From Escherichia coli (GTDB lineage: Bacteria > Pseudomonadota > Gammaproteobacteria > Enterobacterales > Enterobacteriaceae): DNA of 64,000 nucleotides. This document shows positions 8,128 to 8,165 of this stretch, piece after piece; the first letter of the stretch is position 1, and the number at the start of each line of letters is the position of its first letter. Made by a program: the position numbers and the translations under genes. Under the pieces are notes generated by a model. The model was not told the DNA's origin and ran no database searches. It saw only the letters and a program-made list of their open reading frames with translations. The DNA lies in assembly GCF_030013595.1 (NCBI RefSeq), contig NZ_CP122768.1. The stretch is one strand, 5' to 3'.

Positions 8128-8165
8128 CTAAGGTTGAAGGGGCGTTCCAGCCCCTTCAACCTTAG
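8128..8165. repeat. 38-bp perfect palindrome (16-bp arms, 6-bp loop) abutting the 3' end of the yabP-like gene
   Basis: CTAAGGTTGAAGGGGC-GTTCCA-GCCCCTTCAACCTTAG read directly from sequence; 2 nt from the stop codon at 8167. Confidence 0.8.

Follow-up and report, generated by a model that had tools for sequence, protein, structure and literature searches.

A perfect 40-bp palindrome with arms of different origin at the 3' end of espY1 in Escherichia coli, a probable scar of rearrangement in a Tn5-like insertion sequence

The palindrome and the islet that carries it

Why does an Escherichia coli gene end on a perfect inverted repeat, where did this structure come from, and does it do anything for the gene beside it? 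The question is raised by a locus in the window, by which we mean the whole stretch of 64,000 nucleotides analysed here (contig NZ_CP122768.1 of assembly GCF_030013595.1), where positions 8128-8165 read CTAAGGTTGAAGGGGC-GTTCCA-GCCCCTTCAACCTTAG. The original prediction had described a 38-bp perfect palindrome with a 16-bp stem and a 6-nt loop, placed it just 3' of the stop codon of a yabP-like gene, and called it unusually long and perfect. The palindrome is indeed there, and one further G-C pair extends it to 40 bp (8127-8166, not assigned to a strand; sequence, fold and repeat scan), such that two perfect 17-bp arms (8127-8143 and 8150-8166), with 10 G-C pairs within the stem, enclose a non-palindromic spacer of 6 nt. 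Its unusual length was confirmed: 17 bp is the longest perfect stem in the whole window, and the longest one found in 20 mononucleotide shuffles of the whole window never exceeded 11 bp. A calculation of the fold energy, which the original prediction had listed as a check, also placed the structure far beyond chance. The 40-mer has a minimum free energy as RNA of -33.0 kcal/mol on the (-) strand, the strand of espY1, and of -33.9 kcal/mol on the + strand, the RNA fold has a z-score of about -8.7 with none of 200 shuffles being equally good, and the corresponding DNA hairpin reaches -20.1 kcal/mol. E. coli K-12 carries the palindrome at about 59,280-59,319, and one O145 strain has an additional C within the spacer.

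The region of the window corresponds to rapA-rluA-[islet]-djlA-lptD of E. coli. Comparison with islet-free strains delimits the islet to 7760-9237 (no strand), and within these borders it consists of the remnant of an insertion sequence (IS), the palindrome, and espY1 with its upstream region. The islet stands in place of about 120-150 bp of REP/BIME sequence that is found between rluA and djlA in strains without it; in the islet-free strains SE15 and LF82 this spacer is filled with genuine REP/BIME units. At 9180-9239, just past the djlA stop codon, there is a segment of about 60 bp that contains a small GC hairpin (GTGACCGCCAGGGCGGCCAC) and of which a copy with about 91% identity occurs beside yjhR in many genomes, islet-free ones included.

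RefSeq annotation, the open reading frame and a domain search agree that the gene next to the palindrome is espY1 (8167-8943, - strand), which encodes an intact type III secretion system effector of 258 aa with pentapeptide repeats. The resemblance to yabP was correctly seen, since espY1 is a pseudogene in K-12, split there into yabP and yabQ; that the gene is an intact effector gene here had gone undetected. The position given for the palindrome also held, as the TAA stop codon of espY1 (8169-8167) directly abuts the extended 17-bp stem. EspY1 is the same protein as ECs0061 of O157 Sakai (PMC4269881). All homologues retrieved by a protein search are E. coli or Shigella alleles of the rluA-djlA locus, and espY2 provides no outgroup for the 3' flank of espY1: it encodes 189 aa, matches only in mid-gene at 66%, and shares no 3' DNA. 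Our literature search on yabP/yabQ and EspY1-3 returned only papers on Bacillus sporulation, catalogues of virulence genes and, by locus tag, one interactome paper that confirms the gene name. Several properties of espY1 itself were noted in passing. A 15-bp tandem repeat (GGGTAGCACCGTCCA) present in 5.5 copies at 8295-8377 encodes the pentapeptide repeats. Across strains, the lengths of espY1 matches range from 816 to 936 bp and those of the proteins from 189 to 286 aa, a variation that is probably due to differences in repeat copy number. Many EspY1 alleles in NCBI/nr are named 'UDP pyrophosphate phosphatase', which looks like a propagated misannotation. The sole sigma-70-like match in 7600-9400, TTGAGA-16-AATTAT at 9053-9080 on the - strand, is a candidate promoter of espY1, the start of which follows about 110 nt downstream.

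Arms of different origin

The sequence to the left of the palindrome, including its left half, belongs to an IS50/Tn5-like element of the IS4 family (7794-8149, + strand), which was recognized by its left terminal repeat, the N-terminus of its transposase and its alignment with relatives, and which has no right end. The left terminal repeat (7794-7812, CTGCCTCTTGTACATAAAT) differs from the left end of the relatives at 3 of 19 positions. A frameshifted transposase N-terminus begins with the ATG at 7973, and the gene is cut at about codon 60; RefSeq lists a frameshifted, C-terminally truncated 'IS4/Tn5 family transposase DNA-binding' pseudogene at 7972-8150. The translation of the remnant, LGDPRRARRLA...AKVEGAFQ, matches residues 14-45 of Tn5 transposase, and the Pfam domain Tnp_DNA_bind scores 23.6 bits in the remnant, just below the cut-off of 24 bits, as against 62.5 bits for a relative. 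Longer related copies detected by distant BLAST align to 7871-8148 at 84-86% identity. Three of these relatives were fetched, two of them near full-length (L004 and L006) and one truncated elsewhere (L005). The ends of the relatives read CTGTCTCTTATACACAAAT on the left and ...AGATCTGATCAAGAGACAG on the right, which we take to resemble the Tn5 outside end and to equal the IS50 inside end, respectively, and the protein of one relative matches Tn5 transposase in the PDB with E = 4e-43, its ...QVEGAYRLIRNP being aligned to ...QEGAYRFIRNP of Tn5. The remnant thus shares with IS50/Tn5 an OE-like 19-bp left end and the N-terminal DNA-binding domain of a Tn5-type transposase, but only its first 356 bp are left, these are frameshifted, its protein identity to Tn5 Tnp is moderate, and it represents a different, unnamed IS of the group. 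A search for a right IS end in 7700-9400 found none that would make the islet a transposon; with the second terminal repeat and the DDE catalytic domain missing, the remnant is not a complete mobile element.

Alignment with the relatives shows that the two arms of the palindrome differ in origin. The left arm (8127-8143, + strand) is transposase coding sequence for A-K-V-E-G-A and matches the longer IS copies (GCTcAGGTTGAAGGtGC) at 15 of 17 positions in a continuous alignment. The spacer GTTCCA (8144-8149, + strand) is likewise derived from the IS, four of its six positions agreeing with GTACCG of the relatives, and left arm and spacer together form the last 23 nt of the remnant, encoding ...AKVEGAFQ. 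The right arm (8150-8166, + strand) is the exact reverse complement of 8127-8143 and has no homology to the IS, which continues with CCTGATACGTAACCC: the relatives read ...CACTGCTCAGGTTGAAGGTGCGTACCG|CCTGATACGTAACCC..., encoding TAQVEGAYRLIRNP, where the window reads ...CTACTGCTAAGGTTGAAGGGGCGTTCCA|GCCCCTTCAACCTTAGC. The break can be placed at 8149/8150 to within 3 nt. BLAST homology to the relatives ends at 8148, the RefSeq pseudogene ends at 8150, and to the right of the break 16 of 60 positions are identical to the relatives, which is the random level. As homology stops where the right arm begins, this arm is not IS sequence but an inverted duplication at the point of truncation. The IS identity of the left arm is confirmed by strain Z1323CEC0014 (NZ_CP148426.1), in which the IS remnant has relative-type bases up to a point within that arm (GCTCAGG...); as the right arm is unaltered, a C.T mismatch results. 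This allele suggests that gene conversion from another IS copy has made the palindrome imperfect. What the original prediction missed is that the coding sequence of a truncated Tn5-like transposase gene supplies the left half of the palindrome it saw, which makes the structure a junction of rearrangement and not an evolved module.

On balance, we favor the view that the palindrome is a scar left by this rearrangement, born by fold-back or template switching, passive as part of an RNA and a hotspot of slippage as DNA. The IS beside espY1 would have been cut away from about codon 60 of its transposase gene onward when a nascent or broken DNA 3' end in that gene folded back or switched template to the complementary strand. 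Priming may have relied on the GCC/GGC microhomology between 8150-8152 and 8141-8143, that is, on a primer of 3 bp; the GCC at 8150-8152 could also be leftover IS sequence, as the relatives carry GCC one position earlier. The preceding 14-17 nt would then have been copied as their reverse complement and the new end joined to the sequence that ends espY1. Alternatively, a plain deletion may have come first and a local template-switch mutation may have overwritten 17 nt afterwards. Either course, in one event or in two, would leave 6 nt of original IS sequence enclosed by a perfect inverted repeat of 17 bp. Synthesis by fold-back or template switch is the most likely source of the right arm, a polymerase mechanism that we infer from the pattern by which template switches are recognized: one arm and the spacer are ancestral, and the other arm is a non-homologous, exact reverse complement. 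On the IS side, the sequence before the event is visible in the relatives, whereas on the espY1 side the only homologues are alleles of the same locus. A scan of 100,044 species representatives yielded no closer parental IS lineage showing the breakpoint sequence. A scar origin presupposes that no intact IS of this lineage naturally continues ...GTTCCAGCCCCTTCAACCTTAGC within its transposase gene, and what follows GCTAAGGTTGAAGGGGCGTTCCA in an intact IS bears on the GCC microhomology at the switch point and on whether one step or two were involved.

It is established that a single template-switch event can create a perfect hairpin stem (Monttinen and Loytynoja 2022; PMC8794818), and template switching has been proposed to convert imperfect inverted repeats of E. 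coli into perfect ones (Lavi et al. 2018; PMC5941160). The palindrome resembles inverted repeats of this kind, as conceived in the Ripley model and found at E. coli quasipalindrome hotspots, in having an ancestral arm, an abrupt arm that is its exact reverse complement, an ancestral spacer that was kept, and a stem perfect from birth. It differs from them in that the event occurred on or at the junction of a large deletion that truncated an IS and joined it to the 3' end of another gene, in that the switch is deduced here with relatives on the IS side, and in that its 17-bp arm is long compared with a mean arm length of 5.75 bp for non-coding inverted repeats of K-12 (PMC5941160). The locus is a new instance of known processes, namely the birth of an inverted repeat by template switching and palindrome-stimulated deletion, and represents neither a new class of element nor a new mechanism. 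Its value is that of a clean natural example of how a long perfect hairpin can arise in one step from unrelated coding sequence, the decaying end of a transposase gene, and comes to lie exactly where the 3'-end structure of a gene would sit. It also counsels caution, as a strong stem-loop after a stop codon need not be an evolved terminator or a REP element.

Recurrent deletion and possible roles in RNA

In 11 genomes among about 2,080, the palindrome has been removed by a deletion of 44 nt. The deletions use an imperfect direct repeat, of which the left copy, TCAtCC (8112-8117, + strand), lies outside the stem and the right copy, TCAaCC (8156-8161, + strand), inside the right arm. Two types of junction occur and reflect crossing over before and after the mismatch in this repeat: GAAATCA|ACCTTAGC in O157:H7 SS TX 313-1, A16, ETEC6335 and 14EC033, and GAAATTATCC|TTAGC in MB53. 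The deletions are found in three haplotype backgrounds, and that of O157:H7 SS TX 313-1 is independent because O157-type sequence flanks it on either side within 30 nt. With the A16-type background and the MB53 junction, this makes at least three independent events, and espY1 is still annotated as intact in the deletion strains. The palindrome is a hairpin-forming slippage hotspot that is repeatedly deleted in nature. Such deletions are the classic signature of hairpin-stimulated slipped mispairing, a process reportedly worked out by Glickman and Ripley and in the Leach and Lovett laboratories. The events seen here share with it their recurrence, their location between short direct repeats, and one endpoint in the stem with the other just outside the hairpin; they differ in being a natural polymorphism of wild E. 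coli at a short, 40-bp chromosomal palindrome instead of a property of engineered constructs. Palindrome-stimulated deletion can therefore be seen here as standing polymorphism in wild populations. A comparable case is the loss of AAV ITRs in E. coli (PMC11754738).

If the hairpin served transcription, its RNA should have the properties of a terminator or of a protective 3' end. On the espY1 strand there is a GC-rich stem-loop that is followed by the tail AGUAGCGUGGGAUGA, with a TransTermHP-style score of -1.80, and the terminator scan did not flag this strand. The absence of a U-tract on the gene's strand, on which the original prediction had remarked, is thereby confirmed, and with no immediate U-tract the hairpin is not a canonical intrinsic terminator for espY1. 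On the + strand, stem-loop and U-rich tail are both present: the tail TTATTCTG (UUAUUCUG; UUAUUCU) contains 5 T in 8 positions, scores -3.83, and was flagged as terminator-like with 17 pairs, albeit marginally. This score is stronger than -2.5, which we take to be the TransTermHP tail cut-off. The stem of 17 bp is longer than those of typical intrinsic terminators. The palindrome thus has the GC-rich hairpin and, on the + strand, the U-rich tail UUAUUCU of intrinsic and possibly bidirectional terminators, but differs from them in offering no U-tract to the transcript of the adjacent gene and in being preceded by a stronger terminator on the + strand. The latter is a hairpin followed by a T-run inside the left end of the IS (7809-7838, + strand; terminator-like scan, tail score -4.55). 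The IS relatives carry its AAATCCCC...GGGGATTT motif as well, immediately internal to their terminal repeat, and the hairpin probably serves as the terminator of rluA, which would then be an apparent terminator donated by an IS end. In islet-free strains, REP/BIME units and not the hairpin of the IS end come after rluA.

For the espY1 transcript, the most likely effect of the hairpin would be to block 3'-to-5' exonucleases and so to define and stabilize the mRNA 3' end after termination further downstream. In E. coli, mRNAs whose transcription is terminated by Rho have 3' ends that are marked and protected by stable stem-loops without U-tracts (Dar and Sorek 2018; PMC6061677), and espY1 likewise has a stable stem-loop and no U-tract where its transcription unit ends. 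A C-rich, G-poor, rut-like region downstream on the espY1 strand was not found, the C/G ratio being 0.41-0.70 in the first 100 nt; just a weak stretch with C>G occurs at about 8046-7949. The likeness to these protective stem-loops and to mRNA-stabilizing REP elements therefore consists in a very stable stem-loop just past the stop codon with no U-tract after it. The differences are that no C-rich rut-like region follows, that the structure is single-copy, unrelated to REP and derived from IS coding sequence and not from a dispersed repeat, and that its role is a candidate one. The 3'-end tables for K-12 of Adams et al. (2021) contain no entry for yabP or yabQ, which are probably barely expressed in that dataset. 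On the + strand, the hairpin could terminate residual transcription from rluA and the IS that would otherwise run antisense into espY1. We regard these RNA roles as plausible side-effects and the palindrome, in this respect, as probably a passive by-product.

The strongest competing explanation, though still an unlikely one, holds that the palindrome is a selected terminator or insulator that is kept for stopping transcription one or both ways between the convergent rluA/IS and espY1. The flagged + strand, with its 17 pairs, its TTATTCTG tail and its score of -3.83, fits this idea, as does the perfect preservation of the sequence in 2014 of the 2071 genomes that carry it. The evidence against this idea includes the lack of a U-tract on the espY1 strand and the better + strand terminator at 7809-7838 (tail -4.55), which is situated 300 nt upstream, so that little transcription should arrive at the palindrome and a role on this strand would be largely redundant. 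Furthermore, at least three losses of the palindrome have left espY1 intact, and the element is just as conserved in K-12, which has espY1 as a pseudogene. Nor does SNP density indicate excess constraint. Among eight alleles we counted SNPs at 0 of 40 positions of the palindrome, 13 of 333 of the IS remnant and 24 of 124 of the 3' part of espY1, but the palindrome lies within a larger invariant block (about 8068-8175), and in these eight alleles it shows no constraint beyond that of the neighboring non-coding remnant, which makes the measure uninformative about selection on the hairpin. In the same alleles, the proportion of segregating sites jumps at the palindrome, from 3.9% in the IS remnant (7794-8126) to 19% in the 3' part of espY1, with 12% over the remainder of the gene; diversity or recombination seems unusually high in espY1.

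A bolder variant, which we consider distinctly improbable, would make the hairpin a functional 3'-end element of espY1 mRNA that arose de novo from a single template switch in the dying IS and acts at the same time as an antisense insulator, the 44-nt excision being a one-way switch of effector expression in some lineages.

Other origins and genomic distribution

A birth other than by local copying was also weighed. Tn5-type composite transposons carry inverted IS copies, and the palindrome might be the collapsed remnant of two such copies, a long palindrome that was trimmed by deletion to 17 bp. The instability of long palindromes in E. coli and their shortening by slippage (PMC11754738) would agree with such a history. 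It demands, however, that both copies broke at the same internal position and that a second deletion ended exactly 17 nt from the axis, and the islet retains no other trace of a second IS or of a right IS end. A longer right arm, continuing with the reverse complement of 8126, 8125 and so on, was found neither in 16 alleles (the window and 15 fetched loci) nor in the survey of 2071 genomes. Less parsimonious than a local fold-back copy, this derivation is very unlikely.

Tn5-family transposases cut via a DNA hairpin intermediate, and with the palindrome sitting inside a Tn5-type IS one may ask whether transposase hairpin chemistry at a cryptic end, followed by off-centre opening, added the second arm in the manner of P nucleotides. 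Had a hairpin tip been covalently closed, the palindrome should be unbroken across its axis, yet its arms are separated by an asymmetric spacer of 6 nt of IS sequence; there is no end-like sequence near 8127-8149, and the truncated copy of the same family, L005, lacks a palindromic junction. That one copy is also the answer we have as to whether truncated copies of the IS generally end in palindromes: it does not. We hold such an origin to be highly implausible.

Fold-back or template-switch birth at a single place agrees with the distribution of the palindrome. In a BLAST search, an 86-nt query matched 2083 of 5426 complete E. coli genomes, at a single place in each. With a 54-nt query and an E-value limit of 10, matches were obtained in 2071 of the 5426, two places in each, which are the two strands of one palindrome; it is accordingly single-copy and confined to the rluA-djlA locus, and the 54-nt match is 100% identical in 2014 of the 2071 genomes. 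The genome-wide search for further copies that accompanied the original prediction has thus been carried out, and dispersed copies are absent from these 2071-2083 genomes. This refutes a reading as a dispersed repeat. The palindrome shows no similarity to the REP consensus (the GCCGGATG...CATCCGGC type of imperfect palindrome), and an Rfam search gave only a sub-threshold, spurious match to the hairpin shape of mir-133 (E = 0.47). When the left arm plus spacer was scanned against one genome per species in 100,044 species, only a contig derived from E. coli and one untruncated IS (Escherichia sp.) were returned.

The palindrome is intergenic, and other strains hold real REP/BIME units in the same intergenic site; nevertheless, there is next to no probability of its being a dispersed repeat, whether REP-like or of another kind (MITE, IS end, attC-like site), or an operator to which a dimeric DNA-binding protein attaches, given that even at an E-value limit of 10 each of 2071 genomes yields only the two strands of one locus, that REP consensus and Rfam family are lacking, that the scan of species representatives found no palindrome in other species, that transposase coding sequence makes up half of it, and that no regulator gene is adjacent. 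Of the original prediction, then, the palindrome, its position, its length and the absent U-tract stand; an RNA stability element would be compatible with what is seen; the REP-like option falls, since real REP/BIME units occur at this site only in islet-free strains, and the protein-binding site has gone without support.

Two further observations concern sequences outside the locus. The repeat finder returned an inverted repeat with perfect arms of 13 bp around a 3-nt spacer at 57798-57826 of the window (CCTGATTCAATGT / ACATTGAATCAGG). A 1.6-kb contig labeled as a Collinsella sp. MAG (JAIJJM010000692.1) matches 1601 bp of the E. coli islet at 98.9% identity and almost certainly reflects E. 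coli contamination or mis-binning in that MAG.
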